Part shown: piece by piece, positions 14,198 through 51,875 of the stretch
Numbering within the stretch: position 1 is the stretch's first letter
How the letters are laid out: each line of letters starts with the position of its first letter
From: Nemertoderma westbladi
Taxonomy: Eukaryota > Animalia > Xenacoelomorpha
DNA: 64,000 nt
Assembly: GCA_032718475.1 (NCBI GenBank)
Contig: JAUCBJ010003330.1
Coordinates: forward strand, 31,259 to 95,258
Reading direction: 5' to 3'
The notes under the pieces: model-generated
The model's database searches: none
The model's input: the letters and a program-made list of their open reading frames with translations, nothing else
Told to the model about the DNA's origin: nothing
Made by a program: the position numbers and the translations under genes

Positions 14198-15327
14198 AAC
14201 CGATTCAAAGGAGAGAATGTGGAAGAATGTTTTTAAAGACAAGCGGAGGAAAATTAGCTGGAGAAAAACCATACATTAATATCAAGGGTCCATTATGTGA
14301 ATAGTTTTCCCCGGGGCGCGGGTGCTCACGGGTGGTCTCCTTCGGGAGGCTGTAACTTCCTCTTTCCTCATCCTCTTCCTGCAATTATTGTGATCAGTGT
14401 CACAATAAAAGAGTAGGAATGAGTAATGACGTGAAAGGAAACATGTCCATTGTGGTATCTTATAGATACTACCCCCCATATCCTTCCTCCTTCCTACCAC
14501 TACTCTCCCTCTACCCCTCGCCATCGAGGATACCAGACGTTGATAGAGAAACCCTCTTCCTCCCATCTTCTCTACCCAACGCACTTGGAGCTTTCGGGAG
14601 AATATCGACCAATCATTGTCGTATCGTGGTATTGATCGTACCTCTTCCTAACAAACCTCCCCATCCTTTACTATTGATCTGGATGCTTATATTGGTATCC
14701 ATACCTCCTGTCTATGTACCACCATGTTGGTATTTATAATATCAACCTCTACCTCTCTTGTCGTTGATTGGATAATCAACTAACAATAACTTCCTCAAGT
14801 TCATGGCCATTGATACAAGGACTGAAAGGACACAATAATCTTCTGTGAACAACTGGTACCATTACGTGTCATAAATCTGGTTGTTCACATCTCTTAGTGC
14901 TTGGAACTAAACCCGCTAAGTTAGATGAACACAATAAATTCATCCGATTCGAATGCTTTAGGTGCTTTCTGACTCCGTTCCGTAACGTTGACAGTCAGTT
15001 TAAAGACCGCGCTTTGACCAAACTCAGCCTGAGAGATTCCGCTGCTGAGAAGTTGGACAGCGCTGGATTTGCCATTTTTAAGGACGTTTGTATACAGAAT
15101 CTACATTCATCTGTTATACAAAGACCCCAAATCCCCACAGGTTATTCTATTGTGGAAGTTCAAATGGTGGGTTCCCTTGAGAAAAACAGCTACGTCTATC
15201 GCAGCTATGCAAGTTGAAGAAGAACCAATTTGCTTGGAATCTGAAGAAATTCAAACTACAGCATCCAGGAGTAGCGATAATGATTATGTGTTAGAGTAGT
15301 ATCAAGGTCCACAATGTCTTACGGCAT

Positions 15328-15915
15328 ATGATTATCGGCATGCCAATTACATATATACAATACATTAATATACTTGAAATACTTGACCAACCTATTATGG
15401 AGATTTATTGTGCTTATTGTAGACTCAACAATCTACACATTTTCGCAGTTTGTCCTCAATTTATGACTCAATGTCACCACTGTCAATTCAAAGGACATGC
15501 CAGTTTCGATTGCCCTTTCAATCAAGATCAAGAAGGAGTTTATGCGTTTCACCCATACCTCTCTTCCTCCGTTGAACAAAAATCTCGCTCCCCCAGTTAC
15601 GAACTGATGAAACGTGTTGGCGAGAACATTTCAACCAAATACGTTCGCAAATATCTGAGGAATATTAATCCCAATAACTCGGATTCTTATAACTTGATCA
15701 ACTTCATCCATCAAGATCCGGAATATGGTGACTTGTTCATAAACTCACATCCTGAGTTACAAGAAGTTCATAGAAGACCATATGAATATAAAGCCAGAGA
15801 ACGCGAATTAGAGAGAATAATCAAACCGACGAAATTTCTCACTACACACGGTCAACCTACCACTGTCGTGCAAACGACCCATCAAGGACCAGTAAAAGCT
15901 GCCCTGCCGTCTTGA
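15328..15915 (+). CDS. BEL-1 accessory zinc-knuckle protein (likely start ATG 15397)
   Basis: CAYCRLNNLHIFAVC-PQFMTQ-CHHCQFKGHASFDC has the same knuckle pair and 6-aa linker as the accessory ORFs of BEL-2 and BEL-3. Confidence 0.7.
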   Translation: MIIGMPITYIQYINILEILDQPIMEIYCAYCRLNNLHIFAVCPQFMTQCHHCQFKGHASFDCPFNQDQEGVYAFHPYLSSSVEQKSRSPSYELMKRVGENISTKYVRKYLRNINPNNSDSYNLINFIHQDPEYGDLFINSHPELQEVHRRPYEYKARERELERIIKPTKFLTTHGQPTTVVQTTHQGPVKAALPS

Positions 15916-30118: not shown

Positions 30119-32667
30119 ATGGCGAGCAAGTTGATCAGGAAGAGAAAGGCGGAGTCAGGAGGAAAGGAGATACTGGTGGATTTCACCGAGAGGCATCCGG
30201 AAGAGAAGACGTGAGCATACTACGAGAGGTTGGAAAGGGGTCACGCGGCACGAGCGCTGCAGGATCACTTCAGGGAGATGCACGAACAGCGGCTGGTCGG
30301 GACCTACGGGACGCCGTCGCTGGACAACGCGATCTTCCAACACTTCCACTACGTGGTGAAAGGGGACGAGGCGAAGTTCAGGATTCCGAAGTACCCGAGG
30401 GAATCACCGAGGAAGGACTGGAAGAGATTCATAGAGTCCGTCAACAGAGGAGGATATATGATCCTAGACGACGAGGGAACCGTGGAAGACGAGGCGGGTT
30501 CGAGACGAGGATCGGCGGGGTCGGCCAGGACCATACTCCTACATTTGGCCGCGCCAAATGGGGACATCTTCTTATTCGATCTAGGAATGTATGGGAAGAA
30601 GGACGGGCCGAAATTAAACCGGTTACCGAAAGCGGTACAAGTCTTAGTAAGAGAGAAGTCGACGACGAAAGTGGGATCGGCGATTCGCGAGGACGCGGAG
30701 AGGATCATCGGTCCGGACGCCACCAACCTCCTGGATATGCAGAAAGTCTTTATGGCTATGACGGCACCGGATGGGTTGGGGGTAGTCGAAAACACAGGCC
30801 AATGCGGGGCGGTGGCAATGGGCCAATTATTGGGGCTCGTATGCCACAAACCGATGGACTGGGGGAAGTTTAGGGAAGAATACGGAGCAGAACTAGCGAA
30901 CTCGCTAAAGTGGGGAGCGAGACCGGGAAAGCAGGAGGTATATCAATTCCGCAGGGGAGCGATAAAGGTATATATCAGAAGCGATATATCCTGCAGGAGG
31001 ACTGGATGATGATAAGTTTGCTTAACTTATTCATGACCGTGGTTATCGAGAGGGAACCAGGGGCATTTCTGTTATCGGGATCACCCCTAAGCTACAGGAG
31101 AGCCTTTAAGACGGCCTTTGACGGTCTGGTAGACCACCCGGGGCTGAAGGGCGAGTCGGTGTACTACAACAGCCGGCATCTGGTAGACAGGGAGACAGAT
31201 ACACCGTATCAGAGATGGGAGCAGCTAGAGACGGATAGATGAGAAGCAAAGCGACTGGAAGAAGTCGCTAGACGGGAGAGGATAGAAGCAGAGGAGAGGG
31301 AAGAGGAGGCCAGGACACAGAGTTACGGCTTCGAGGAACAGGCAGGCCTAGACGAACTTCATTGGACTTCATCAGGGAGTTTGGGGGAGTCTCTACGGCG
31401 AGAACTGGGATGGACGGTGGGATCGCCGAAACAGTCGACGTCGGGGTTGTAATCGATGCCCATACCAGCGGGCGCCGAGGGCGACCAACCGCCAAGGAAG
31501 TTAAGGGAGCTAGAGGGATGGAGAGCTACGGGCGAGAGCCAAGGCGGGAAGGGACACAGTGGATCCATCGGGATACCGGGGTTGGAGACACTGCCAGAAG
31601 AGGAGGACGACGACGACGAGTTCGGAGAGATGCCGCCCATCGAGAGGATAGGCCACTCGGACACGGACTGGGTTGGCGGAAGGGTGGTGACGGCCAGTGG
31701 GGCGAGGGCCTTCTGGAACAGATCCGGCAAGCGGACCTGGGTGCACGAGGAGCCGGCGATGGATTTCGCGGGGAGCACTATCAGGTTGGGCGAGCAACCG
31801 GGGACGGCACCACGGATAGTATTCGGGGAGACGATGCCCGAGAGGGGCGGAGAGATCGACGTAGATAGAGAGCCCAACGTAGAGAAGTTCGCCTACCAGC
31901 GACTCCACAGACCGTGGAGATCGCTTGGGACGAAAGACGAGGTGGGACGGGAGACATTGGTACTCGGCTGCGACTACTGTGGGAGACAGACCCATCGGGA
32001 AAGGAGCTGCCTATACCGGTTCCAGAAGGGAACCTTCTGTCTCTACTGCCGAGAACCAAGCCACAGGATGGGGGCGTGTCCACGGTTGCATAACCGATGT
32101 CCAAAGTGCCACTTTTGGGGACACTACGGATGCGAGTGCGACTGGATGAACGACGAGGAGAAGTTTACAAGATTCGAGGAGTGGGCCGACGTCGGGGCCA
32201 TGACGCGCCAGCGCATGAAGGCCCAGGAGTTCAAGTGGGGTTTCTTCCTTATCAATCAGGAGACTCACATGGAGATCATAAAGCGGAGGCTACCGTTTAC
32301 CTACCAAGAGGTAGCAACGGCGGCGTCGTACGCCGGAGTGATGAACACGCAAAGATATTTGGACAGGTGGACGCCAGAGAACCGAAGGGAGTTTAGGGAT
32401 TTCTTGGCGGAGCACGTACCACAAGCAATGAAAATGATCCTATGGGACGCCACCAGAGGGAGACAACCGGGCCACTCTGAGGGGCCACTGGCGAAGCGAT
32501 ATCGGGCACTAATAACACCAGCGCCCAAGGAGCCAACGACCGGGATCAGCATGGAGGTGGCGGCGAAGGTCCGAAAGCAGAAAGCGGATCCCAGAGGAAC
32601 GGTGGTAACCAAGAAACGACCCAGGGAAGAGGACGCCAGGGGGGACTATCCCCAGAGGAACAGATAG
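30119..32667 (+). pseudogene. BEL-2 accessory ORF3: DEDDy 3'-5' exonuclease plus three CCHC zinc knuckles (3 stops, 1 frameshift)
   Basis: ATG 30119 is in frame with 30230..31009 across TGA 30212. ORFs 30910..31242 and 31456..32667 share a frame across TGA 31240 and TAA 31450. Motifs: MILDDEG, LLHLAAPNGDIFLFDL, LPKAVQVLVREKSTTKVGSAIREDA, LLDMQ, LKWGARP, RYILQED; three CX2CX4HX4C knuckles. Confidence 0.8.
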
Positions 32668-33889: not shown

Positions 33890-34730
33890 ACGGATAAGCC
33901 GGGATCCCTCTTGGATCCCGTCACACTATCTAAGCATTCATAATTTAATCAAGCACACTTTAGCAACACACCAATCAGCGTAACAATCAATAGTCAATAC
34001 TTACCAATTTGTAGTTCCCAATGTACAATTTACAGTCTGCAGTTCGCAATATGCAGTTCGCAGTATAAAGTTCGCAACGTAAAGCACAAAGGCCTCTCCC
34101 GGGTACATGTAGGCTTCCTAACTAACCCGATTCCTGCCCCCCTAACACTAAAAAATAGAGACAAAATCTGGATCATCAGCCCCCTAATTACTGTACCAGC
34201 AATCAGTCTTCCCTCTACACTGCTAGCCCTCCGACCGCAACGGTGACCCACCGCCAGCGTTGCTCGCCTTTGAATCCTCCGCACTCCCTTCGTCGCTACC
34301 CCCCGGTGCGCCCGCCGCACCTACCGGTACCTTAGCCCTCCATTTAATGAGTAGCTACCGTAATGGCGCATGCAATCACACAGTCTGACAGTCTAAAGAA
34401 ATCCCGTGGGATTATCGCTGTCATGTCTCGTAGTGCGAGCGGAGGTTATGAAGTAAATAACATATATATATTTGAGTTCAATATAATACTAGCACACGTA
34501 TAATGTTACGGTATAATAGCATCAAACATGTTGCGCTGCAGCCATGCTGCATAAGTGGTTCGCGCATACAGCTGTACTGTGTACAGGGGGTCCTGGGGTC
34601 AGTATCTAGCAGTACTGCAGTAATAAGCAGTCTGGATGTACCGTTAAAGCCGTAAGTATGTATATCCTTAGTATATTCCCTTCACCCATGTTGCCTTATA
34701 ATACAGTATAAAGATTGGGGCGAGCCATGA

Positions 34731-35091
34731 CGATGGGCATGACGATGGGATGGCACCAGGTTGTGGGCCGATCGCCCACACGTTCGATGATGCCCTTTGC
34801 CTCCATATTCTCGATTTCGCGCTTCGCCTGTTCCGATAAGGGAACGGAATGGGGCGGGCTGCATAAATGCATAAAGGTACAAGCATTTTCCACCAACTCT
34901 ATTGACATTGGTGGGCCACACATTGTTTTGAGGTGTCCGTCCGTTTGGAAAACATCCTTAAACTCCTCTAGGAATTTGAGTTTAATTTTGTCGTTGTTTA
35001 TCGAAAGTTCGTGTTTAATTTCGTCAGAGTTTATCGAAAGTTCGTGTTTAATTTCATCAGAGTTTATCGAAAGTTTTGTGTTTAATTTCAT
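34731..35091 (-). pseudogene. pol: Gypsy RT N-terminal remnant fused to the LTR; includes 30 bp coding repeats
   Basis: LEEFKDVF...LKTMCGPPMSIEL...EIENMEAKGIIERVGDRPTTWCHPIV, then an abrupt join to the LTR. KHELSINSDEI repeats at ~34980-35120. Confidence 0.8.
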
Positions 35092-35114
35092 CAGAGTTTA
35101 TCGAAAGTTCGCGT

Positions 35115-36988
35115 TTAATTTCTTTGGATTCTGAGTTTATTGGTAGTCCCCGCCCGTTTTGTAGCTGCGGCGTATGATTGTTTGGGGGCGGGTTCAGCGT
35201 CTGATTTCGCGGAAACGCCCCGAACTTCCCGTTTGATGTCTGGGCGAATAGTTGAAATTGGTTTGGGGAAATCTTTATGTACTATTCCCAAACCTTTGCA
35301 GCCCTGTAGAGATATGTAGATATCTGTTCCCATATCCGGACATAATTATTATTATTATTATTTATTTATTCCATACCATAGGTACATATTAAAATACAGT
35401 AAAATATACCCAAAATACATAAATAAACCCACTCTTTATGAGTGTGGCCCCCTACAGAGAGTTCCATAAAAAGTTTACCCTCACACTCGATTTGGCAACC
35501 GTTTGCTGATTGCAGTGGAAAATCGGGAGGAATTATTTCAGTCGACTCTGGTAATTTCCACTCCGATTGTATCATGGAGCCGGCAACAGTGACCTGGGCT
35601 CCCGTATCAGCGATACACATGTTTTTTCCCACATATTTGCCCGATTTGTGGAAATCTACCGCGATAAGCGCACGTTTATTTGCGGCGGTGCGCTTGTGGA
35701 TGTCAGTGATAAGGACGGCGCCGGATGTTTTTGGAGGAATTTTGGATTTAGGTTGTAAACACTGTGCGCCGAAGTGTCCAGTCCTCCCGCAGTTACTGCA
35801 ATCCTTTCCTGCAGCTCTGCAGGGTGCATTGTTGCTGTGGGGAAACTTCCCTCCACAGTGAAGGCATTCCCCCCATTCTTTTGCCGTGTTGAGGAGTTCT
35901 AGGGCGCGGTTTGAGGAAGGACTCCGCCCCGTAGCGGAAGTTTCCTTCCCTTTCCGGTACCTACTCTTAGGGCGTCGACTACATCCCCTGGGTGGGGGTG
36001 TTTGCGGAGTCCGTACTGCATTCACACGCTGCCCTCTTATGAGTTTAGTATCCCTTGCTGCGATTTCGCGGCACCGGCAAAAATCGAGAGTTTCCAGTCG
36101 TGTTAGGGGTGGTCGTTTAGTAAAGAGTTCCTCCTGTGTTTCATCGTCATGGATACCTCGGATGAGGAGCGTATTAACCCAGTCGTCTGGGGTCATCGTT
36201 TCGAGACCAGCGTCGTCTGCCAGCTCGCACAGTCGTACGTAATAATCATCGAATGTCTGGTTCTCCGACTGTTTTAGTTGGACGAGTTGGTGGCGGTCGA
36301 CAATGAGGTTCCTCTCGGAACGGAGGTATAAGTGGATCTCCTCCATAACTTCCGCAAGAGTTTTGTCCGTGTTTACCGGGATGTTTAGGCGATGGTGGAT
36401 GCGGTTGAGGAACTCGGCAGAACAATTCGAAAAAAAGACTGCAAGTTGATCCTCCCGAGGTTTCTGGGATAAGTGGACAACGGTACAGTAGTTGCTCCAC
36501 TGGATCTCCCAGCATTTGTAGCGCTGAAACGTGATATCTACTTCGAGTTTCTCGGGGGCTCGAGCGTTTAGTTTTACGGTTTCGCCAGGTCCGGGGTTCC
36601 GGGGGGGGGGGGGTGCGCCTGCGGGTCCCTGTCGGAGAAATTCCGCCCTCTCTTCTGCACGGAGACCATCGCGATGTTCCTCGCGGCGTTCATCGTTCTC
36701 CCGGCGGTGTAGCTCCTCTTCCCGGCGGCGTTGTTCTTCCTCGGCACAGTCACGCTGAAGGTAGATCAGAAACTGCGTTAGGTCGGGCGGTTTATGTTTG
36801 TCACCCTGTTCCTGGTCGCCAAGCGCGCCCTTGAGTTGATTGCGTAGTTTGTTGGACGATGTTTTCGGATTGAATTGGATTCCAGCATTTGTACAGTGGA
36901 TCTTAAGTGTCTCCCGGTCGAGATTATCAATTTCCTCGAGCCGTAGATCGAGCCATTCGTCAGGTTGAATGGGTGTTGTCCTTGCCAT
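35115..36988 (-). pseudogene. gag: Gypsy gag-protease
   Basis: QLKQSENQTFDDYYVRLCELA, CSNCGRTGHFGAQC knuckle, IADTGAQVTV protease. The frame continues into 35115..35333 once the 77 bp insert at ~35340-35422 is removed. Confidence 0.88.
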
Positions 36989-37142
36989 CCTGGTCAGCTA
37001 GTGTTGTAAGTTCCACGTAGGTTAAATTCTACTGGCTCTGTTTGCCAGCTACACACTGACACACTGCGCCATGTCATGTCTCGTAGTGCCATGTCATGTA
37101 TCGTAAACTAAGAAATAGAAATCAATCAAGGGAAAAGGGCGC

Positions 37143-37953
37143 CTATCTAAGCATTCATAATTTAATCAAGCACACTTTAGCAACACACCAATCAGCGTAA
37201 CAATCAAAAGTCAATACTTACCAATTTGTAGTTCCCAATGTACAATTTACAGTCTGCAGTTCGCAATATGCAGTTCGCAGTATAAAGTTCGCAACGTAAA
37301 GCACAAAGGCCTCTCCCGGGTACATGTAGGCTTCGCTTCCTAACTAACCCGATTCCTGCCCCCCTAATACTAAAAAATAGAGACAAAATCTGGATGATCA
37401 GCCCCCTAATTACTGTACCAGCGATCAGTCTTCCCTCTACACTGTTAGCCCTCCGACCGCAATGGTGACCCCCCGCCAGCGTTGCTCGCCTTTGAATCCT
37501 CCGCACTCCCTTCGTCGCTACCCCCCGGTGCGCCTGCCGCGCCTACCGGTACCTTAGCCCTCCATTTAATGAGTAGCTACCGTAATGGCGCATGCAATCA
37601 CACAGTCTGACAGTCTAAAGAAATCCCGTGGGATTATCGCTGTCATGTCTCGTAGTGCGAGCGGAGGTTATGAAGTAAATAACATATATATATATTTGAG
37701 TTCAATATAATACCAGCACACGTATAATGTTACGGTATAATAGCATCAAACATGTTGCGCTGCAGCCGTGCTGCATAAGTGGTTCGCGCATACAGCTGTA
37801 CTGTGTACAGGGGGTCCTAGGGTCAGTATCTAGCAGTACTGCAGTAATAAGCAGTCTGGATGTACCGTTAAAGCCGTAAGTATGTATATCCTTAGTATAT
37901 TCCCTTCACCCATGTTGCCTTATAATACAGTATAAAGATTGGGGCGAGCCATG
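37143..37953. repeat. Direct repeat (~810 bp) of 33926-34730: ~495 bp flank plus Gypsy LTR
   Basis: CTATCTAAGCATTCATAATTTAATC...GGGGCGAGCCATGA is near-identical at both positions. Confidence 0.95.
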
Positions 37954-38309
37954 AACACAACAATCGCATCTTAATCACATAGAACCATTAATCAAAGGGT
38001 AGAAATCATAGTTCTGATTGTATTTGGCAGTAATCATTGAGATCGATTAAGAAACACAGCAAGAAATAAGCAGAAATTACAAATTTGCGAATTATTGCAA
38101 GAAAACAAATGGAAATACAGAATACACAGAATTATGCACAAAAACTGAGATTAGTGAGATGCACCTACCGGAAATACAGCCAATTTATAGGTGATTCATA
38201 AAGGATGATGCAATAATCCTCTGATTGGTTCCCCAATCCGCGCTACCATTAGACCAACCTGGAAGCAGCTAGGCCAATAAGGAAGCCGGATTGTGAACCT
38301 ATTCCTTCC

Positions 38310-38671
38310 AGAACCTTCCAGAGCATTCCATGGCCGCACATTGGAGCAATAAGATGTTCTATGCCCTATGATTGGCCCAACTCATCGTTCCATGTGTTGT
38401 ACGCACCTCATTGGTTTATCAAATTGTACCAAATGAAAATAAATTACCCCAAAATGCAAATTTCCCAACTGGGATTCGAACTCGTAACCTATCTGTAATG
38501 CAACCAACGCCTTAACCATCTGACCACTACGCCATGAGATTAACTACGGGTTTTATGTGTATTAATATGAATAGGCATATTACATTACTGTAACTTAATC
38601 AAAATGCGTCGGATTTTAGAAAGTTTTTACGTTAAACTACAAATGCTATCTTATAGTGAAATAATCCATCA
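38310..38671 (-). repeat. Shared (U3-side) part of the BEL-3 3' LTR
   Basis: Near-identical to 52092-52342 plus 53427-53537. Begins TG on the minus strand directly after the PPT-like TTTTCATGGAGCGG. Confidence 0.75.
38464..38533 (-). promoter_or_regulatory. tRNA-derived segment with Pol III A/B boxes inside the LTR (second copy 52247-52315)
   Basis: Minus strand GGCGTAGTGGTCAGATGGTTAAGGCG...GGTTACGAGTTCGAATCCC has an A box-like TGGTCAGATGG and a B box GTTCGAATCC. The acceptor stem does not pair. Confidence 0.65.
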
Positions 38672-40369
38672 CCGCTCCATGAAAACAGTAAGTAAGACTG
38701 TTTTCACCAATCGAAATATAAACTATTTACAAAATACTTCTAAATCTACTGGTGGGACCGAAAATATAAAATAATCACTACCTAATTATTACATACTTAA
38801 TATTGCAGGTACGGCGTAAATACAATCTATCATACATACAAAATACAAATTTACCAATTAACTTTAGTGCATAAAATACAAAAAAAGTTTTCGGTTATCA
38901 AGATAAGCAAATTAAACAAATCAGAACAAAACAAATCAGAACAAATCAAACAAATAATCTCAAGTTTTCAATCACTTGTGTCCTTCTGGGCTCCTCCCCG
39001 AGGCGCACCCACGAGGCGGACACCTTTCTACCACCCCTGGGGCCAGTCTGACTGCTTGTTATTATCAGACCGGGCCGGAGGGTGGCCCGATGCTTCCCGG
39101 GTTCAATTTTCAATTCCCCGATCACACCAGCACAGCTCTTCGAACGTGTAGCCAGATGGTCGGCTACTGTCAACTTACTGTGGCCTGACTGTACATTGAG
39201 CCAACTCAAAGTATAACAAAGAGTCAACCGGCAGGTGGACCAGTCGATAGCGATAGAGCACCAAGGTCGCCCTTGGGCCTAACCGACGGTCTTGTCCCAA
39301 GCGGGCTTGCGCTACCCAACATGGAATTTTGACTCATTTTCACCTGCCTCGCCAGCAGTATTGAAAAGACAATACTGTCTGTAGCTCAAAAGCTACTGAA
39401 CAAGTAACCACTTACCAGTCACTCAACAGATGTTCACAAAATCAAGTACACAACGGTAAGCACAAAATCGAACACATACCATGCACACACAGAAGACATA
39501 ATCAGGTAAGACAAAATCGGTGACAAATCAGAGGGGACAAAATTGTATCGACTCATAAAGAGTCGAGAGTACCTTATTTTGCCGTCAGGGCAAAATAACT
39601 TTGTGTGCACAAAGTATGCTGGGGCGCAGTAAAGATATGGTCCTACTAATACCAGCGGCGTCTGGACCAACTGGCAAGGGTTCCCATACTTACTCGCAGT
39701 GGCCACACATACAATCACGTGTACTCACGTACCCACAGCAACAGAAAGCTCAAAGACCCGAACAAATCCCAAAGACCAATCAGCTGAACATGGAGACAAT
39801 AACATATAGTATCAAAAAAACGGAACAGCTGATGGCCAAAGGAACCCATCCAAGCCCCAAGCAAACTGCCACTGATCGCCCACATACAAAACATAGTTCA
39901 CACCACATGAACCACAAATCACACCATGCCACCACCCCTACTGTGTACAGGACTGGCAGTACGGCAACATGCCGACTAGACGGTACCACGGCACCATGGC
40001 AATTCATGGTTCGTTAGACACGAGGGCCTTCAGTGACTCCCTAGCACTATATATATGATTTAACGTGCCCCCAGACCCTCACGAGTCCGCCGCCGCCTGT
40101 TAAGATTACCCATATAGAGACCTCACCTCTTTAGGTAATCTTTATATATTGCAAATATACATAATAAATTAACCAAATTAAATCAGTCTTATAAAATAAA
40201 CATAATTGCTATTATCTTTCAAATAAGTCTTAAAGTGTCCTCCTGACGAGCTAAAAAGATCGTCCTGCTGGTCTGGATATCTTCTCCTGAGCACTAATTG
40301 CAAACGGTAGGCTCGCAAGCCTTCCTTCTCCTTCGCAAGCCTTCCTTCGCTCCTCCAAAACCAACGTCC

Positions 40370-40477
40370 GAAATAAATACCCAAATATAATATCCAAATA
40401 TAAATATCCAATATAAATATCCAATATAAATATCCAATATAAACATCCAAATAAAATATCTGAATATAATATCCAAT
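40370..40477. repeat. Short tandem repeat (~14 bp AAATATCCAATATA) just 3' of BEL-3 ORF3
   Basis: About 7 degenerate units, bracketed by two hairpin motifs (40306, 40479). Confidence 0.8.
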
Positions 40478-40537
40478 CGGTAGGCTCGAAAGCCTTCCTT
40501 TCTTCATCTCGCCCTCCTATTCCTTGGCCGAACGGGC

Positions 40538-43500
40538 TCATCCACGCCCTCTAATACGATTGGGTGGTGGTCGGGATCGAACTGGACTCGGACTTCGGTG
40601 TCGAGCTGTCGGTGGTTCCAAAACGCTAGGAAAGGGGACGACGGGAGTTTCGCACATCCGTCGTGCGCTCAGTCCTCTAAATCCTCGTCCGATTCCAATT
40701 GTTGGCTTAACATCGGATCGAGTCTCCACAACGCTGGGAGGAAGTCGAAAGGGTGGGACTGTTCCGTCCGCTGACACCTTGCTCTCTGACGTCGTCTGAA
40801 TTCTAATGGGTTCCGGCAAAGCGTATCCTGTCCCTCCGCGTGGTTCTCTAGTGAGGGAAACTGTGCCCCAAGTCATCCGGATTTGCGACTTCGATGTCGT
40901 CCTCTCGGCGACATTTACTACCTTCTCTATCTCTTGTCCGGCCTTCTGGTCTCTAAGTATACGAAGTTGCAGATCATCCTGTGAGTGACGCGTCTTTTCG
41001 GCTAACGGCGTGGCCTTGAAGCCAGTCTCACACAAAACGTCCGTCTCGTCTAAAATACACGAGGTTACGTGTTTGTGATAAAATGCGCTCCTGTATGCCC
41101 AAGCTATCGAATGCCAGGCTCCTCGATTCTGCTGTTTGACTCGCAATTTGTCGAATTCCCCGGCGGTAATCTTGTTCACCACAGTTTGAAAGTTCCAAGT
41201 GTTCTTGTTGTCAGGGTGTACCTGTAGAAAGTAGTCCCGTCCCGCACAACCTTAAATCCGCTATCCAATGGCAATATATCCAGCACCTCCAAGAGTTCAT
41301 TGTATTGAGGCATAGCTGACACGTATCCTTCCTTCGACTTTATGAGAGGGTTTACGGCCCAAAATCCCAAGTGTGCTCTCATAGGGAAATGGCGTCGCTG
41401 TGTCGATACATGCTCGTCTGCTAGATTCTCCCAATGGTCGAATAGCTGTCGAATGATTTTAACTGACATGTGCTCATAGGGGATGTCCCTAAGTTGACAT
41501 TCGGATGCCCTATGACCTTTAATATTACAATACGTGCACTGCACCACGAAACGCCAGCAAGTGTAGAAAGTGTGCGAACGTTGATCCCCGCACCAGTTAC
41601 ATACTAAGTCTGGTAGAGATATATGTTTCGCTCCGCATTTCTTTGCGTGGGGGCCAGTTGCCCCGCATCTGCCACAAATAGTGTTGGCAGGGTACCAAAC
41701 TCGCTCATAGATAAGATCTCCGATGGGGCGAGCGCTACCGTCCACATGATAATTCTCATCATCCGGGTCAGTCAGTATGTTCGTCTCTGTAGGTTGTACA
41801 CAAACCATGGCATCGCTTTTCTCCAACTCGCGTATCTCAGTTCGTGTCTTCCTCGGAAGGTTCTCCTCTATCTCTATGAGTTGCCGCAACGGTTCGTCTA
41901 TTATCGCAAACTCGGTCGGATCCACATCGTCGTGATGGGTGGTAGGCTCGCGAGCCTTCCAGGATCCTTCCGGGCCTTTGAATTCCGCGTGGCGTTCCCT
42001 GTTGTAGGGTGCTAACGTAAACATCGACGGTCTGTCGACTAGGCTTCCCACGTGAGTGAGATAGATGTCCCTGAAAACGCTAAGTCCCGCTCACGTGAAA
42101 ACTTCGCAGTGCGCATCGGTGTTGTAAAAGGGTTGGAGAAATCGTCGGAATACATCAGTATGCGTCCTTCCTCTGTCGTAAAAGGTATGTCCTTCACCGA
42201 GACATAACGGATGTCGCTTTAGAGTCCTAGACACTACATCGGCGATGAAACAAACGTTTACCGAAGATTCTATCGCCAAATAGTATTGCAAGATTATTCG
42301 TGGAGGTGAAGTAATCGCCCAGTACACGCAACCTCGCCACTTTAGCTGTGACTCGAACTCGTTTATGCTGGGAGTATCTCCCTCTCCGTATACGTCCGTG
42401 TATTTGCTCATCTTACTCTCCTTATAATCCCAACTAAACATTAGGTATGAGATATAACCCGTTCCAGTTTTTAGCGTGTTATACTCCCTAAAATATCCTT
42501 GCTCAATAGCCCAAAGCAACAATGGTCTAGTATCCACGTATGGCATAGGCAATCGATCCTCATCCGTGGGCATTCCTGCGAAATCGCTAATAAGGTCATC
42601 CCGTACACCGGATCCGATCTTGACGATGCTCTTGTCAAGCACAACGTCTCGTATGGCCTTTGGCAACATTCTAGCTTCTATGCTACAAGCCAGGTCCATG
42701 GATTTAACTATCCGTTTTATCATCGCCTGTCTTTGCGTCATTCCTTCCGGCATAGGCATCTTTCTGTTGCTCCTCTGTCGGCTGAAGACATGTAACACGC
42801 CATCTGGTGCTCGAATCTGTATGGTCTTCGAAGTGAGGCTTTGCTGATGGCTTCGTCCTTCATTATCGTAAAATATATAACCATTCTCCTTCAGAGATCG
42901 GCTAGTCGCATCCCAATCGTCGAGTAAATCGTCGGTAGGGTTCCAAATTCTCCCAATTGACTTTTCATCATCGAAACTAATAGGTTTACCGGTCCAATTG
43001 GTCGCAATATTGGTGTCGGTTTCAAACGTTCCGACTCCAATCCATAATCGAATCGTTTTCGTCAGATATCCTCGCAAGATACAAGGTGCGATATCCGTCC
43101 CCGCGCGATCCACTTCCTTAAAGTCTGTAATATGTGGAGGCACATTGCGTACGATTTTCTGAACTATCGTTCTACGCAACTCGGCTGACTCTAACACATC
43201 ACCAAAGGTAACCGATAGGAGGAAATCCAGGTTCAAAATGATCTCCGGGTGTTCAACTATAGGAATCTCATAAGTTGTCTCCTCTCGGGTCGGTATACTA
43301 ATAGGAAAGCTGGTTGGTCTCGCGACCGGTACTATCGCTTTAGTAGGATGGGGCTGAGGTTCTCGCGTCATCTCGACATGAGGTATCTGTAGTCTCTGCG
43401 ACAAACGCTGAGCAAATGTGATACTATAGAAGAGCTTGGGTGTCATCTCCTTAGGTTCGGTTTGATCTTGGGATATCCAGTAAAATGGTAGGCTCGCGAG

Positions 43501-44262
43501 CCTTCCGCCGAACTCCTCGATCTCGCTTTTCTCGTACGCCTTGTATGCCCTGTAGAGGCTCAAAGCTTCCCATTTTTCTTGCGTCGACTTATTAGACTCG
43601 TCCACTACCATATTGTAGACGTCTGGTTCGACTAATTTGGGTTCGTAAATAACGATCTCACCCGCGTTCGGTCCACTCATCTTGAACGAATGGTACGGTA
43701 CGCCTTCTTGGTAACGCAGACTTTTGTGGTATGAGCATCGCGCTAATATCGGCTCGGGGTTCTCCGAGTTCAATCGCATAGGAATCGCGTTGTCTTGCTC
43801 GCGCATACATGCTCCACATTTGTAAAACAGTTTGTATATAGAGAACGCGTCCTTTGTCTCTGAATCCGCTCCTCGAGCGCGTCTATAAAGATGCATTCCA
43901 TCAAATTCGTCCCTAGCTGCAGGCAAGGGTTCGTTCACCGTCAAATATTGCAGCGTATGATATAATCGGCGTATCTCCGTGTCTGGATCCTCGCAAATGT
44001 CACTGGCGTCGCATAACGCATCGTAAGGATACAACGCATTGAACTCTGTGCGTAATTCCTCCGCTCTTTTGTTATAAGCATCCAATCGCTGTTTTGTAAC
44101 ATTCGGGTCCGCCTTGGATTTAGCGAGCTTGGCTGTACTCCTAGCCATACTCTCCACTCCAAACACGCTAAAGTTTTTAGCTCCATAACGATTAAACGGC
44201 GCCTAGTGCTCCTGTTCCTGGGTAAACCCCTGACGTAACTCCTTATAAATCTTCTCCGCCAT
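40538..44262 (-). pseudogene. BEL-3 accessory ORF3 (~1240 aa reconstructed): N-terminal unknown domain, DEDDy 3'-5' exonuclease, three zinc knuckles, Arg/Pro-rich tail
   Basis: ATG 44262 is in frame with 42091..44166 across one TAG. ORF 41176..42051 is in the same frame across TGA 42093-42091. ORF 40538..41182 overlaps by frameshift. Motifs: YIFYDNEG, TIQIRAPDGVLHVF, LPKAIRDVVLDKSIVKIGSGVRDDL, YVDTR, LKWRG, YYLAIES; knuckles CGRC..H..C, CNWC..H..C, CTYC..H..C. Confidence 0.8.
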
Positions 44263-44813
44263 TGTATACGCGTATATATGGTTACATATCGTTACGTTTC
44301 TACTAGATGAAGCACAAATAGAGGTTAGATGTGAGGTGACTTAGAGTTTGTTGGCTTTTGGCTCAACTTTTCGGATTCGCGTGATTTCGCATTGGCTCCT
44401 AATCCAAAAAATTGTGCCGATAAAAAACGATTTCCGGGTAAACTAGCCGCGAGTCTAAAAAACTCACCTTTTAATTTCCCAAACTACATTCCCAAAGAAA
44501 TAATGCAGTCGAGAATTAGTTTGGTCTAAATAATAGTAGACACGACTACGTAGAACAAGGCCGATTTTCTTTTCCAAAAAAATTTATCGGTAGGCTCGCA
44601 AGCCTTCCATCTGCTCTTGTCCTCCCCAATTTTAATTTTTATCTAGCTGTATTCTAGAATTCGCATTCACTGGAGAATCATTTTTCTTAAATTTAAATCC
44701 AACTAAATGGATTTGTCTAATAATTTTTGAAAAATTGTCTCACTTGTGGGTTCCAAGTGGAATTCCATTCCTACTGTACACACAATCCCGCTCCTATGTG
44801 ATACATAAGGGTA

Positions 44814-46436
44814 CTACCGTCCATGTTCACATATAAAGACAATGGTTGAAATAGAGGGCAAATAATACTTCTGCCATATTTCCCAGAATTTATTTGCAAG
44901 TAGCTGAGTGATTTTCCAATCTTTGTTGCCGTATCCGTCGCTATTAACGGGTACCGAAATGGGCAACAATGTCGTTGGCGCCTGCATAAGCAGGTGCGCT
45001 GGTGTCAAGGCAAATTGTGCGTCGTTATTGTCTGGGATCAAAGCGATCGGTCGAGTGTTCAAAATCGCTTCGATTTCTATTAACAACGTCGTCAGTTGGT
45101 TGTCTGTCAAAATGTGTTGCGTCGGTATTACTTTAGCCATAGCTGGTTTGATTGAGCCAATCAGCCTTTTCCAAACGCCGCCTCTCCACGGACTGTCTGG
45201 AGTGTTGAAGTTCCAAACAATACGATGAGGACGTAGTTCCTTGGAAATCTGGTTTTGGTCCAACTTTCTTAAAGCTCTGGTTATTTCGTTCCGTGCACCC
45301 ACAAAGTTTGTCCCTTGGTCACAATAAATGGATTTGACCAATCCACGTCTAGCGATAAATTGCCGTAAGGCTAGGATAAAGGCATTGGTGGTCAAATCTG
45401 TCACACGCTCAATATGGACAGCTCTGCTGGCCATGCAAATGAAGATTAATCCCCAACGTTTTACCTGTACCCTTCCGCGTTTCGCGATTATAGGTCCAAA
45501 ACAGTCTATCCCTGTCTCAGTGAAAGGGGGTCTAAACGCCTGTAATCTTGCAAGTGGTAGTTCACTCATTTCTTGGTGTCCTATCCTCGCGTGCACCTTC
45601 TTACAAATCATACAGTTCCGTGTTACCGAACTCAGTGCCTTGCTAAGCCTAATCAGTACAAACCTCGATCATAAGTGTGATAGGCAGTGATGTCTACCCA
45701 CGTGTTTGAGTTGTACATGTGCGTCCAGTATCATAGCGCGCTGTAACTCATGGTGTTGCGGTATGATGATAGGATACCTAAAGTCTAGTGCAAAGTCAAT
45801 GTTCTGGAGTCTGGACTTGTGACAAAGTAAGCCCCTATAAATAATCGGACTCCAACTCAAAATCGGTGAAGACTTGATCTGTTTACCTTGATTGATCGCT
45901 GTGAACTCTCGTGCGAAATATCGCAATTGATAATGTCTTATAATATCAACTTCACAATGACCAACTTCCTCTAAGGTAAGTCTTCTAGGAAAGTCGCGTT
46001 TGCCTCTGGCATATTGTCTCAAACGTTTGAGCCATGCTAACTTGCGGCACGCGTCAGTCCATGATCTAGTTAGGTTTACTATCCTGTCAATGTAAGTGTT
46101 AGTGACGTCATCAGGTAAGGTATAGTCATAATGTGGATACTTGTTTGGACTTGGTAGGCCCACGGGCCTTCCGGTAGGTTTGTCTGAGTCCCCAAGTATG
46201 TCAATCTCCACGGTCTTACCTTTACTGTCCGCACCTAGTGAATCGACTGGCAGTAACGGTTTCAACTCTACAATGTTAGTGTGTTCCTGTGAGTCTGTAA
46301 GTTTCCTAACCTTAGTCACACGCTTAACTGTAGGTGGTAAGTCAAGTATTTTCTTTGAGCGGAGTGTGATTGCTATGGCCACACCTTTGTCGTCCAAAGA
46401 AGTCAAATTCGGTAAGTTTTTAATAGTCCGCTCCAA
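44814..46436 (-). pseudogene. pol: BEL-3 integrase region (pre-IN linker, HHCC finger, DDE core; frameshifted)
   Basis: RYPIIIP...AHVQLKHVG; LPLARL...PFTETGIDCFGP; WGLIFICMASRAVHIE; CDQGTNFVGA; SPWRGGVWKRLIG; LNTRP; LTPAHLL. Confidence 0.92.
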
Positions 46437-46581
46437 TGGGTCTTCTACTGGAGTGTCTAGTAGACAGTCTGGTGAAATGTCTAGTAGACAGTCTGGTGAG
46501 ACATAGCGCGGAACATCCGGCGAAATGTCCTGTCGTCGGTCCCAAAGAAAGTCAAGCGTAGTTTCTGTCAGAAAGTCTGGT

Positions 46582-48114
46582 CTAAAGTCTGGTGGGACAG
46601 TCTGTTGAGATGTCTGGTGGAAAGGCTGGTGAGACGTCCGGTAGACAATCCGTCGAGAGTTCCATAAAACAATCTGGTGAATAATCCGGAGAACAATCTG
46701 GTGTCGCTTCTGGTGAATAATCTGGCGAGTAATCTCCTCGATCTATCGCTCCCACACTTCCTTCCTCGATTTGCTTCTGTATCCCGCGATATCGAGCTTC
46801 CATGCGATCCAGGGCAGACAAGTCGTGTCCAGCTCGCGATCTTATAGATCTATCTCTCGCGTCGAGTTCGAGGTCCGCCTGCGCGTTCGCTGCCTCGCGC
46901 TATCTACGATTTAGTTTGAATTATAGTTGAATCTCCCTTTCGCGTCGATCTGCTACTTGTTGTTATGCCGCTAACTCCGCTTCTTGTATAGCTAGCGTTA
47001 ATTTGTCTCACTTCCAACTTGGCGCCTGCGTCAGATGCCGCTTTCTTCCGAGCTAACTCCGCTGCGTTTACTGTCGCAACTCGTGCTAATTCGTCGGCTG
47101 CAGCTTCTTGTGTCAAATCTTCCTCCAGTCTTCTTAGTTCCAAGGCTTCGAATTCTGCTTGCGCTTTGAGTTGCACAATCCTTGCCTCGTCTTCTCTTTG
47201 TTATTTCTCTCCCTCGATGGCAATCTGTGCCATCTGCCGTTACGCTTCTTCCTCGACAACTTGTTGTCGGTGTGCAACTTCCTGTTGTTGTCGAGTAATT
47301 ACAGATGCTGTTCTACTAACGTTGCCAACGTCGCTCCGCATGCTAACGAATGATCTATCCAGTGGTGGATTTTGGTAGGTTCGCGAGCCTTCCGTAGTAA
47401 GAACTTCCGTCGTCCCTCGCAGTTCGACTTCCGGTTCTTCGGTACGCCGTTTCTACGAAGAAAATTGGTGAGCGTCTCTAACCTCCTGTCCAGGCAGTAT
47501 AGTTCTTCTTCCTCTTCGGGTTGTAACAACGCGTCCGAAACTGACTCACCTAGCAGTTGGTCGAACTGCTCCTGTTGAGCCAATCTTATTACTGACTTAA
47601 ACTGGATAAGGCTTTCCCTCACACTTACCAACTTATCTATTATCTTTACCTGAGTAAAGTTGTCGCCACACAACTCTGCAAGTTCGTGTAAACCTTTAAG
47701 TTTATCTACGGAGGCATGTACCCTACTTTCTATCCTTACCTGTAAGGTGTAGAACTCGTATCTCGACATCGGGGCGGTTAACTCGCGTAAAACGCGAAAA
47801 CCTTCTCCGAGGTTTCGAGTAATCTGGGCCATGTGTCCTCCTATACTTCTAATGACATTTTCTTGGCTTCCCGCCAAGCTTACCATGTCTGGTTCCCGTG
47901 ACCTGGTCTGCGGGACTGTAAGGAAATCCTCGATCCTGCCGTCGCCATGCATTGTGGCTTCCGGTATTTCCATTCGGGGTACCGGCGACACATGCGGTGT
48001 GACATCGGTGGAATCTCGGGTTCTCCTTCTCGGTTCGTCTACTGTTGATCTGTCTGGGTCGCACGAGTCATAGTCGGTAGGTGGGTATCGAGTCAAATGT
48101 GGTGTGTCACTCAT
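46582..48114 (-). pseudogene. gag: BEL-3 gag N-terminal part (fragmented; remainder of gag, PR, RT and RH missing)
   Basis: ATG 48114 ORF followed by coiled-coil-like Ala/Glu-rich fragments, in the position upstream of integrase and resembling the BEL-1 gag N-terminus. No knuckles or catalytic motifs remain. Confidence 0.6.
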
Positions 48115-50732
48115 GTCTTATTATATACGTCAAGTACAGGTAATAAAATGTCAAAGTATCAGAATGTCGAAATGTCAAACTTACCTTGGTATATATAGTA
48201 TATATATACCCTAACCGGTACAAATAAATCAACAAAGTCAGAATGTCGAAATGTCAAAATGTCGAAATGTCCAAATGTCAAATTACCTTGATATATATAT
48301 ATATCATATATATACCCTAACCGGTACAAATAAAACTAACAAAGTATATAATAAAATATGTAATAATCTAGCCTACCGGCTAAATTTGTACGAATAAGTG
48401 AGATAACGGTACATGTTACCAAAATGTAGATCAACAAGTACAAATAATAGGCAAAACAGCAACGTCTAATGGGAAATAAGTACCAACAACACTACTAATT
48501 AGACAGTGAAACCAACAAATTTTGAGTACTACTGTGCTTTTAAGTTTGAATGACACGAGTCGTAAAACTTACGCTCCTTTGATCTTCCAGTCGTGCAAAT
48601 TCCCAAATACAAACCGGACGTGGGTCGTTCCGTTTTTCGGCGTCGCGGACGAATTTTGTGTCTCCCAAACTTTGCGAAAATCGGTCTAATCCTCGAAGCG
48701 GTCCAGAAATTAGTCCTGAAAAGTCGAAGGTGAGAGTTTTACTTCTACTCTACGAAAAATCTTCCTAGGTACCGATACAACTTGGTCTTTAAACCCTATG
48801 TACCTTTTCAAGTACCGAAAAGTAACACCGCACACACACTAACTATTGCTACAAACAAACTATTAGCTAGTCAAATATTAAATACGAAACTACTAGCTAC
48901 CCTAAAGCCTACTGAAGCAGGGGACGTTCTACAAATTACTAATTTTACTAATTTTAAATTGTAAATATCTCCTACCTTTACAATAGCTAACAATATATTT
49001 ATATCTCACTTTAGGTAAGATATATCTACCATTTGCAAATTACAATTGGCAAAATAAACAATAAATATACCTCACTTTGAGATCCTCTATCGTAAGGGCT
49101 ATCCTACGGCCTACAAATCTACTAGTATGAAGCTATAGAATATCTCTAACCGTAAAGTCCAGTAGTATACCGCTTACCAGATCCTAGTAACGATGTATCT
49201 TACCGTAAGATCTCGTAATGAAACGGGCTCGTACAGTATCTGACAACAAATCCCAGTCCAGGGTATCTAAACAAACAGATACAATACACAAACGACTACT
49301 GGCGAGGAGCAGAGCCTAGTGTCTATTCTATGTACGTGAGCGGGTCTAATGCCTACGAACTACACAAAAGGAAACCTGTCCTCTAACCGGTATGGCAGAT
49401 GTACAGTTATAGTAACAGACCAAACTCACGGGAAAACAATCCCCACGCAGCGAATCCTAACTATCGCTGACAGTCCTAAATACCGTAACTTGCCACGGTG
49501 TGATTTATATGGTTTATATACGAGCTAGTGGGTTAACAGACCTAGAGTAACAATACTGATCCCCCTGTACGAAATCAGTCTAAAGAGGGTCGTGCCTAAT
49601 GTAACAATACCGCTGCTCTGACAAAACAACAGTTTAATACCGAAATAAATACTCCTTCTTGCCGTAACTAAATATCAGATCCTAAAATTACAAAATACCA
49701 ACAGTGAGTTATATATATATTCTGCCTAATGTAATCTAAAGTGCGCTATCTAGTAGAACTCTAAGGGTAAATATGTTTTAGGGCGTGTGTGTGTGGGTGT
49801 GTTACAATAAAACAATTTTGGTGTATATCATTTTACTAGGTTTTATTGATTTTCTGACCAAAACAATACCGTGCGCTAGCTACGAAAATAAGCTAGTCGC
49901 GTTTTGTAGAACTTTATACTTACAAATGACGTCAAAGCTCTCTCCTTCCTATCCACAACTCAACCGGGCAACCACGGTGTCAGTAACTACACCCGTGATC
50001 GGCACAAATACCAGATTCTGGTTGTAAGATAAGAAATAGGGGTTAATTGCTACCATACGTTAGCTGATCTGGTATACAAATTTGATTCTAGAACTTTGTT
50101 GCCGCGGTGGTTAGCAGCAATACCTATCAGTACGTGGCAAGGTGCGGTAGGATATTAATAAACCTCCCTAGGCCAAGCGGTGTGCCGGTAGCAGAAATAC
50201 TCCTTGCCTGATCAAATAACTAAGGTTCAGACAGGGGGTGGGGGGTACTAATGTATATTCTACAAAGCGAACCGGTACCAAACGGTCAGTAGTACGAATC
50301 ACTAAATTATGGAACATATGCTGTCCGTACCTAATGTGTACTCGCATACTTACGAACGGCAATAACTCGCACCTGTGAGGTATACAGGTTAACCCAGGGA
50401 TTTGTAGTACTGAGGGGGGGGGGGGGTTCTGTCAGAATATAATTATTTGATCCTAAATTTTGCGGCATCCCAGAAAGGCGTCACGCTTACCCTGATCTAT
50501 AGGTCTTACGTTGGGCAAGGGCGTCAAACAAAGTCTTACCTTCCTCGGAAATCGGGTGCTGCATGGCAAAGGTGGAGTATTTCGAAGGGCGAAGGGGGTG
50601 CGCGGTCTAATCTAATGTGGGCGCTAGCGTGTTGTGGACATCATTCCCTGCGTTGCTGACGGCCTAACGGTCTAGGTGGCCATCTTCCCAATGCTTGGCT
50701 GTCCCAAAGGTGGACGTTTGGAAATATACATG

Positions 50733-51875
50733 ATCAAGGCCTTTGATTCAGTCTCTCGCTCACGTATGTTCAGCATACTTTCATTATATGGGATTCCTGA
50801 TGAAATTATTGCAGCAATCAGATCAGTATACGATGGTTCGACAACATTTGTGTCTACTGTTGACGGTGACACAGAACAATTTGAAGTGTTATGGGGCGTC
50901 CTCCAAGGAGACACACTTGCACCATTCTTGTTCATTATTGTGGTTGACTATGTTCTACGCATGTCCTTAGATCATCATAATGATGATGGGGTGATGATAA
51001 CTCCACCTACTGGCTCCAGAAGTCGAGGAAATCCTGCCAAGTACCTAACTGATCTAGACTTTGCTGATGACTTAGGAGTACTCTCAGAATCATTAGAGGG
51101 AGCCCAGCGGCTCCTCAGCTCATTAGAACATGCTGCTTCTAGTGTTGGTCTTTTTATTAACTCCAGAAAGACCAAAATTCTGACTGTTAACTTTGAAAGT
51201 CCTCAGCAAGTCTCTGATCGGATGAGCATAAGCTCAAAGGATGGTATGCTTGAGCATGTGGACGACTTCTGTTACCTGGGATCATGGATCCGGAAGTCAG
51301 GTGAGGACCTTCGAATACGTAAGGGAAAGGCATGGGCAGCCTTGAATAGGCTTTCCAGGATTTGGAAGTCACCTAGAATTAATCGGAAACTTAAGGTCCG
51401 ATTATTTAGAGCAGCAGTAGTTCCAGTACTCCTCTACGGGAGTCCATGCTGGGCTCTAACTGCTGAGGACACCAAATCTCTGGATGGCACATTCACAAGA
51501 ATGCTACGCCGGGTACATTGTGTCAAGTACAAGGCACACATCTCCAACCAGACACTATATAACATTGGAGGTGTCTCATTGGTTCCCCCAAGCTTGACAC
51601 TAGAACAAAATCGCCTCCGCTTTGCAGGACATTGCTTTCGCCGTGAGGACCAGCCAGTGCATAATCTTGTACTTTGGCAGCCTCATGGAGTGAATAAGCA
51701 TGGTGGACAGCCCATGACTTTCTTGAGACGCATCTTAAAGGACACTGGCCTTAAAGATGCGGATGATCTAGCAAATGTCATGGGTGATAGGGAGTTGTGG
51801 CGGTGCAATTTTGTTGACAAGCCGGCACAGCATTCTTAAAAATGCAGCTGCAATGCAGCATGCCGATCCTAGTAG
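50733..51875 (+). mobile_element. 5'-truncated RTE-clade LINE (RT C-terminal part)
   Basis: KAFDSV, GVLQGDTLAPFLFIIV, DLDFADDL, FCYLGSWI, LLYGS..W.LT, RLRFAGHC. Tail CCTAGTAG. TSD TACATG at 50727-50732 and 51876-51881. Confidence 0.92.

Follow-up and report, generated by a model that had tools for sequence, protein, structure and literature searches.

Described Exonuclease-Encoding Elements and the Accessory Gene of BEL-3

DEDDy exonucleases encoded by an open reading frame 3 (ORF3) have been described in the rotifer elements Juno and Vesta and in Athena/Terminon elements, where they were acquired at least twice (PMC5408684, PMC6431247, PMC6338049). Dada DNA transposons also encode a DEDDy exonuclease, which has been proposed to process 3' ends (PMC3706591). 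For BEL/Pao retrotransposons, the only extra gene mentioned in the sources cited is env (PMC3118150, PMC554778, PMC11662393). Among cellular enzymes, RNase D of Trypanosoma brucei (TbRND, PDB 7C42) has a DEDD exonuclease and, towards its C-terminus, CCHC fingers with affinity for single-stranded RNA; when the enzyme is overexpressed, small guide RNAs are depleted (PMC7797062). Here, three BEL/Pao-type elements (BEL-1, BEL-2, and BEL-3) were analysed in a repeat-rich stretch of animal DNA, 64,000 nucleotides of Nemertoderma westbladi (GCA_032718475.1, contig JAUCBJ010003330.1, positions 31,259 to 95,258), referred to as the window and used for all coordinates. BEL-3 and BEL-2, which are very distantly related, each hold a broken copy of the same accessory gene, here called ORF3, whose sequence predicts an exonuclease domain and three zinc knuckles.

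Juno and Vesta are Gypsy-like elements. Their clades are listed with TelKA and Mag (PMC5408684). They share with BEL-3 and BEL-2 a non-env ORF3 located after pol of a long terminal repeat (LTR) retrotransposon, a DEDDy 3'-5' exonuclease assignment, and an occurrence in distant element lineages (PMC5408684). The rotifer domain is called RNase D-like, with a DEED signature, and that account mentions no more than a Cys-His-Cys motif (PMC5408684), whereas the favoured motif in BEL-3 is DEDD. Compared by description, the genes considered here also differ in their BEL/Pao carriers, in a WRN/EXD2-like domain, in three tandem knuckles, and in an N-terminal region of about 420 amino acids. In Dada, the DEDDy domain lies inside the DDE transposase of a DNA transposon (PMC3706591), whereas here it belongs to a separate ORF3. 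Tas and Cer7, which belong to BEL/Pao as well, likewise have additional coding sequence downstream of the integrase, but the proteins encoded there are envelope-like (PMC554778, PMC3118150). The ORF3 protein of BEL-3 gave no Pfam match and contains no membrane segment (best 19-residue hydropathy of 1.48), and is therefore not env-like.

The predicted domain resembles the WRN, EXD2, and MUT-7/Nibbler group (PF01612) in the ExoI DxE, a Q-L-A strand, a segment of the form LP..L..ll...i.K.G..i..D, and the Y-x3-D spacing. It differs from this group in its identity of about 20%, in inserts after the third strand, and in the presence of knuckles, and no helicase, HRDC, or HNH-like partner was seen. 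As in T. brucei RNase D, a DEDD exonuclease is followed by tandem CCHC fingers, and this enzyme was matched both by a profile of the knuckles and, separately, by a circular fold search. However, T. brucei RNase D is a cellular enzyme of the RNase D group with four fingers, a combination termed very unusual (PMC7797062), whereas the exonuclease of ORF3 resembles the WRN/EXD2 type and is encoded by a mobile element. The likeness is likely an architectural analogy and not orthology, and the trypanosome enzyme serves as the closest working model.

No report of an exonuclease ORF in BEL/Pao, or of a DEDDy ORF3 with knuckles, was found in the literature search, outside which lay Repbase, Dfam, GyDB, and subscription papers. 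Nematode Cer/Tas elements may have additional domains close to env, and an earlier record could therefore exist. Element-borne DEDDy exonucleases were already known; new here are the BEL/Pao carrier, the predicted WRN/EXD2 type, and the triple knuckles. The finding may bear on how animal retrotransposons resist silencing of the PIWI-interacting RNA (piRNA) type and on the role of the exonuclease ORF3s first described in rotifer LTR elements. For the combination of exonuclease and knuckles, a cellular analogue of solved structure is known that acts on small guide RNAs, which offers a concrete assay.

Organization of ORF3 and Its Homology Between BEL-3, BEL-2, and BEL-1

ORF3 of BEL-3 occupies 44262-40538 of the minus strand, downstream of the integrase. 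Its ATG lies at 44262, and 552 bases separate it from the integrase frame. Its parts are the following:

43006..44262, minus: N-terminal region, some 420 codons long and beginning with the ATG (44262), containing the stop at 44203-44205, CGAC (43818-43807), and CSYH (43737-43726)
42250..42930, minus: predicted WRN/EXD2-type DEDDy 3'-5' exonuclease domain, with GYIFYDNEG (42882-42856), IQIRAPDGVLHVF (42822-42784), LPKAIRD...RDD (42666-42595), and LKW (42345-42337)
42859..42867, minus: ExoI D-x-E (D446 and E448 of the 703-amino-acid frame)
42595..42621, minus: ExoII K-x-G...D (D536)
42376..42390, minus: favoured ExoIII Y-x3-D (Y605 and D609; YGEGD), with an alternative Y-x3-E at 42282-42268
42016..42159, minus: post-exonuclease segment common to BEL-3 and BEL-1, spanning the stop at 42091-42093
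41497..41676, minus: tandem array of three CCHC-type zinc knuckles (41676-41635, 41601-41557, and 41538-41497)
41359..41442, minus: post-knuckle segment with weak likeness to BEL-2, containing FDHWENLADEHVSTQRR (41442-41392) and GFW (41367-41359)
40538..41251, minus: C-terminal frame past a frame change near 41,250, with an R/P-rich end

The homologous regions of the other two elements are:

30215..31009, plus: BEL-2 ORF3 exonuclease frame (ExoI D85/E87, ExoII D160; ExoIII either YGAEL at 30881 or YIRSD at 30971)
31453..32667, plus: BEL-2 ORF3 triple-knuckle frame
14948..15915, plus: BEL-1 ORF3 remnant, with the post-exonuclease segment at 14948-15139 and two knuckles in 15295-15915

All BEL-3 motifs quoted in the original prediction lie at the places and on the strand given there. 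The gene had been taken for an open reading frame, which it is not: two in-frame stops (44203-44205 and 42091-42093) and the frame change near 41,250 interrupt it. Even so, its 1028 codons include only two stops, whereas the remaining two frames contain 45 and 65. The tail described as RS/RG-rich is rather R/P-rich (12 R, 11 P, 6 S, and 6 G in the last 60 amino acids) and lies past the frame change. Regarding the roughly 450 additional N-terminal amino acids claimed for this copy, ExoI does start about 460 codons after the ATG; however, ExoI of BEL-2 is itself preceded by 80 codons or more, which makes the excess over BEL-2 smaller than 450. The N-terminal region gave no Pfam match and has no counterpart in BEL-1 or BEL-2. 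A likeness between the N-terminal parts of BEL-1 and BEL-3 was considered and rejected (960 of 2000 shuffles scored as high).

The proteins encoded by the two ORF3 copies are homologous. The exonuclease-bearing ORFs of BEL-3 and BEL-2 reach a Smith-Waterman score of 93 (shuffle mean 35, maximum 65; 0 of 1000 as high) and align in pairwise BLASTP with E 8e-07 and 23% identity over 213 columns, and the knuckle-bearing ORFs score 70, again with 0 of 1000 shuffles as high. The protein alignments made by eye thus withstood comparison with shuffled controls, and the position after the integrase, the sense orientation, and the domain order agree between both elements, as had been proposed. The proposed lack of DNA similarity was also borne out, the local DNA score of 24 being at chance level (mean 26.6 in 30 shuffles). 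Past the knuckles, the motifs of the visual alignment (FDHW...GFW versus FTRF...GFF) are in place, but their match taken alone is borderline, with 41 of 1000 shuffles as high.

BEL-1 contributes a third copy, as a remnant. Its two knuckles match those of BEL-3 and BEL-2 (scores of 88 and 93; 0 of 1000 shuffles), and a further segment is homologous to the stretch directly after the BEL-3 exonuclease (score 62; 0 of 2000 shuffles as high for the chosen stretch, and 1 of 500 when the entire region is used). The exonuclease of BEL-1 may have been deleted or have decayed.

Predicted Exonuclease Domain of ORF3

The ORF3 domain is very probably a DEDDy 3'-5' exonuclease of the WRN/EXD2 type, both in fold and in family, because four weaker, partly independent lines (the ESM Atlas, a profile search, a PDB match, and the catalytic motifs) agree on this assignment. 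In the ESM Atlas, the top clusters were PF01612/WRN-like for BEL-2 (0.95, 194 of 256 features) and for BEL-3 (0.90, 147 features). A hidden Markov model (HMM) built from 58 WRN/EXD2-like sequences ranked the two ORF3 exonuclease frames first and second among 684 six-frame ORFs (E 0.13 and 0.21) and scored each above all 2000 of its own shuffles, while a control HMM of a short RNase D-like bacterial family (32 sequences, one of them in the wrong frame) gave no signal. A two-sequence ORF3 profile searched against the PDB (177,635 sequences) returned a sole match at E<=10, mouse WRN exonuclease (E 0.79).

The fourth line concerns the motifs. The ExoI D-x-E follows a beta strand, with D446/E448 in BEL-3 and D85/E87 in BEL-2 falling in invariant alignment columns, and the HMM alignments place an ExoII of the form K-x-G-x5-D at D536 in BEL-3 and D160 in BEL-2. 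For ExoIII, the best site of BEL-3 under a position-specific scoring matrix (PSSM) is YGEGD, located 69 residues after the ExoII Asp (62-83 in the references), while BEL-2 offers YGAEL at 63 residues after ExoII or YIRSD at 93, 30 residues past YGAEL. A placement of ExoIII at FYNTD by MAFFT was rejected, as it lies 157 residues from ExoII and within the segment shared with BEL-1. Because of the PSSM and the spacing from ExoII, the full catalytic set is likely present in BEL-3 and doubtful in BEL-2. The original prediction that the catalytic acidic residues were kept in both copies therefore stands for the ExoI Asp/Glu and the ExoII Asp and is doubtful at the favoured ExoIII (YGEGD in BEL-3, YGAEL in BEL-2).

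Several observations weigh against this assignment. Each of its four lines is weak by itself. The ORF3 exonuclease had no Pfam or NCBIfam match and stayed short of the curated PF01612 cut-off; no homologue was found among 5.8 billion proteins (794 and 2,485 candidates examined), and none at E<=0.001 among 1.84 billion representatives. The 147 Atlas features of BEL-3 are below the 170 typical for true family members, HHalign gave a weak result (probability 4.6%, E 0.009), BEL-2 has Leu for the ExoIII Asp in the favoured alignment, and neither the WRN/EXD2-like nor the control HMM detected an exonuclease in the BEL-1 remnant. An unguided single-sequence structural model was poor, with a predicted local distance difference test (pLDDT) score of 33. 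A BEL-2 model guided by WRN-like rows reached a pLDDT of 66 with EXD2 as the best match (Foldseek E 1.4e-03; Z 7.5, root-mean-square deviation 3.8, 105 aligned), but this model is circular and covers ExoI-II only, ExoIII not being modelled. In addition, no ORF3 relatives were found in phages, in metagenome, viral, or prokaryote contigs, in E. coli (an uninformative search), or in the PDB by single sequence. The weight of the finding is further limited by the fact that every copy in the window is broken and that the searches gave no relative outside the host organism.

The lack of any curated family or database match and the HHalign probability would suit a domain that is not a DEDDy exonuclease and whose motifs match by chance. 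This is most improbable, however, given that both Atlas results, the first and second HMM ranks, the shuffles, and the lone PDB match point to the same WRN/EXD2 subfamily. A fold that is correctly assigned but catalytically weak or dead, and that binds RNA as a scaffold or decoy in the manner of EXD1 or Maelstrom, would be in line with the ambiguous ExoIII and the missing Asp at the favoured site of BEL-2, with the third and fourth places of EXD1 in the (circular) Foldseek list, and with the knuckles that BEL-1 retains with no detectable exonuclease. Such a scaffold is nevertheless quite unlikely in view of the ExoI Asp/Glu and ExoII Asp present in both copies despite an overall identity of 23%, and of the complete Y-x3-D at reference spacing in BEL-3. 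An active WRN/EXD2-type exonuclease is the reading carried forward below.

Zinc Knuckles and Proposed Function of ORF3

Tandem CCHC-type motifs number three each in BEL-3 and BEL-2 and two in BEL-1. Searched against the PDB, a profile of the three arrays matched the yeast RNA-decay adaptor Air2 (E 0.0015) and the RNase D of T. brucei (E 0.0016) best, with LIN-28 and retroviral nucleocapsids ranking below them (nucleocapsids at E 0.07 or weaker), and the BEL-3 knuckles alone agreed with the profile (E 0.17). Since arrays of this kind resemble a wide range of CCHC proteins, the first place of Air2 lacks specificity. As regards a possible origin from Gag, the ORF3 knuckles scored higher than all shuffles for BEL-2 gag (0 of 300 as high) and at chance for BEL-1 gag (158 of 300).

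Because the 552 bases between pol and ORF3 are non-coding, ORF3 would be expressed as an accessory protein apart from pol, either from a separate message or from a spliced one; candidate acceptors lie at 44526 and 44303. In the proposed mechanism, the knuckles would hold single-stranded RNA while the exonuclease digests its 3' end, as in T. brucei RNase D, using two-metal catalysis. RNAs of the piRNA or small interfering RNA type, or their precursors, would be shortened or destroyed in this way, to the benefit of the element. By analogy, the substrate is somewhat more likely RNA than anything else. A role as an RNA-gripping, RNA-trimming enzyme directed against host small silencing RNAs is proposed tentatively, as a possibility a little short of an even chance, because BEL replication appears to proceed without ORF3, because small RNAs are targeted both by its nearest cellular kin and by its architectural analogue, and because its knuckles are nearer to RNA-decay adaptors than to nucleocapsid. 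Nibbler/MUT-7 and EXD1 act in small-RNA pathways. Against this role speaks that WRN and EXD2 act on DNA too. The rotifer account also mentions mut-7 and EXD1 (PMC5408684).

The same enzyme could instead act on the nucleic acid of the element itself, with the knuckles targeting the genomic RNA or the particle and the exonuclease trimming 3' ends of RNA, the primer tRNA, or the ragged ends of cDNA prior to integration. CCHC knuckles are the RNA-binding module of nucleocapsid, and processing of the element's own RNA 3' ends or of cut DNA has been proposed for the rotifer ORF3s (PMC5408684) and for Dada (PMC3706591). A repeated motif of BEL-3 could also provide a cis signal for such an activity:

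40306..47393, minus: 20-nt near-palindromic hairpin-like motif in six copies (40306, 40479, 41941, 43487, 44589, and 47374)

The copies share a single orientation and are distributed over gag (one), the ORF3 coding region (two, in different codon phases), the spacer between integrase and ORF3 (one), and the 3' non-coding part (two). None were expected by chance (100 shuffles), and the motif does not occur elsewhere in the window. It is possible that it represents a packaging or protein-binding signal. However, it is absent from BEL-1 and BEL-2 and folds into a short bulged hairpin with z-scores of just -0.5 to -2.0. Moreover, the knuckle array ranks nearer to Air2 than to nucleocapsids, and metagenome BEL elements with readable downstream DNA carry no such ORF, from which it follows that BEL replication does not need ORF3. 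Action on the element's own nucleic acid is thus considered rather unlikely, and the tentative role against host small RNAs is retained.

Integrase Relationships and the Origin of ORF3

The original prediction regarded ORF3 as the mark of a single BEL lineage, which the integrase comparison does not establish. The integrases of BEL-1, BEL-2, and BEL-3 are 33-41% identical, which is in the range of comparisons between superfamilies or within the most diverse superfamilies; identities of 27-39% have been given between BEL/Pao superfamilies, these figures being for longer consensus proteins (PMC3118150). In the integrase tree, BEL-1 and BEL-3 group together with support of 89/84, and an exclusive clade of BEL-2 and BEL-3 is rejected by the approximately unbiased test (p-AU 0.041). 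A clade of all three elements is neither supported nor rejected (p-AU 0.10), and the presence of ORF3 requires two changes on the 11-row tree. This tree is small and unrooted and contains the three window elements with 8 of the 20 metagenome loci recovered by an integrase profile, near-duplicates, short matches, and one locus that looks Gypsy-like (L018) having been left out. At the 20 loci, most of which have little DNA after the integrase, no ORF3 match better than E 0.02 was found. Viral contigs yielded no relatives when searched with BEL-2 pol or with the integrase profile.

An ancient gain followed by losses, or an exchange of the accessory ORF between lineages, is possible, and exchange would fit equally well as a single BEL lineage. 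Exchange of an accessory ORF between lineages has also been proposed for the rotifer elements (PMC5408684). The failure of the integrase tree to unite BEL-2 and BEL-3 would also be compatible with passenger genes, that is, with an exonuclease-knuckle gene taken up from the host on two separate occasions and of no benefit to the elements. Yet the protein searches gave no host-like protein near either copy, the two copies have in common their position, domain order, and LKW motif, BEL-1 holds a third homologous remnant, and ORF3 is spread over a multi-copy family. Capture as a passenger is accordingly very unlikely, and a shared accessory gene remains the preferred reading.

Multi-Copy Family and Selection on ORF3

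BEL-3 was found in four public DNA runs from three studies of one organism, one of these runs being perhaps the source of the window itself; no RNA run was among those listed, which carries no information on expression. At 80% likeness, 12,330, 7,974, 5,974, and 337 contigs aligned on BEL-3 and covered 30 of 30 bins, ORF3 included, with identities ranging from below 90 to above 99%. Since the distinct records are so many, BEL-3 is a multi-copy family that includes ORF3, although the contig depth is no copy number.

In none of the four runs do the other copies share the stop at 42091-42093, which is located between the exonuclease and the knuckles; in those copies, both parts therefore likely form one protein. 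In addition, among 190 indels, the 12 with the best support fall without exception outside ORF3. Past purifying selection, as previously proposed, is supported by inference from proteins that remain alike while the DNA similarity has been lost, and it is considered quite likely that unbroken copies encode one protein and that this protein was under selection in the past. That a single window holds two to three copies, about 23% identical, of such a gene, while env is the sole extra gene of this superfamily in the sources cited, likewise suggests that ORF3 has been kept by selection.

Within ORF3, the segment 42094-44262 has 17 listed differences from the other copies, 11 of them at third codon positions and 8 synonymous, while 0 of 13 were so classed in the other coding segments; the differences classed come from 30 rows among the best 40 of 1,296. 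This is a hint that the segment belongs to a selected, diverged subfamily.

A broader scenario would be an old, undescribed branch of BEL/Pao encoding an anti-silencing ribonuclease, in which a WRN/EXD2-type exonuclease and Air2-like knuckles destroy piRNA-type guides, kept since the BEL superfamilies split, even in high-copy forms lacking reverse transcriptase (RT). As a whole, this scenario is speculative and rather improbable, roughly one outcome in several.

Structure of the Three Elements and Neighbouring Features

The remaining parts of the BEL/Pao elements are the following:

3202-17231, plus: BEL-1, with LTRs at 3202-4253 and 16223-17231 that are 81% identical
13600-13750: Cys/His-rich stretch of BEL-1 (CSYY...H...C...C) between the integrase and the ORF3 remnant, with no match
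24805-28878, plus: BEL-2 pol (Pfam Peptidase_A17, E 1e-40; DUF5641, E 9e-25)
44814..46100, minus: BEL-3 integrase region, with one internal stop
46900..48117, minus: gag-like 5' remnant of BEL-3, assigned by position and with no Pfam match

The BEL-3 integrase matches BEL-2 pol in tblastn (E 3e-58, 31% over 426 amino acids), which places BEL-3 in BEL/Pao; its own DUF5641 match is weak (E 0.03). Between its gag-like remnant and integrase, no protease, RT, or RNase H is present, and the full order of gag, protease, RT, RNase H, and integrase is lacking. BEL-3 is thus a deleted copy or a non-autonomous form. One contig diverges from the window at 46,733 and continues for about 1.1 kb, a weak hint of more sequence there in other BEL-3 copies. 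BEL-1 also has no RT, its protease running directly into the end of RNase H; RT is therefore missing in both BEL-1 and BEL-3, yet both retain integrase and parts of ORF3. An LTR pair was found for BEL-1 alone, the search for pairs in BEL-2 and BEL-3 having given none.

Other features of the window are:

28996-29648: tandem array with units of 34-37 bases, between BEL-2 pol and BEL-2 ORF3
33926-37954: LTR element inserted at the BEL-2 3' end, with LTRs 97.7% identical and a gag-protease frame only (35366-36997, minus)
50676-51839: RT fragment of a non-LTR retrotransposon (RVT_1, E 8e-14), adjoining the 5' side of BEL-3 at the expected site of its 5' LTR
38310-38671 and 52092-52346 + 53426-53537: two copies of a short repeat, 98-100% identical, with tRNA-like box A/B motifs recognized by eye
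54530-55903: intronless rhodopsin-family G protein-coupled receptor frame of 457 amino acids (Pfam 7tm_1, E 2e-37)

The short repeat is likely a short interspersed nuclear element on account of its box A/B motifs; an Rfam search of 38-54 kb of the window found nothing, including no match for this repeat. Its second copy is split by about 1.1 kb containing a 3' frame (52356-53057) like that of a long interspersed nuclear element. The receptor frame at 54530-55903 is probably the sole host gene in the window.

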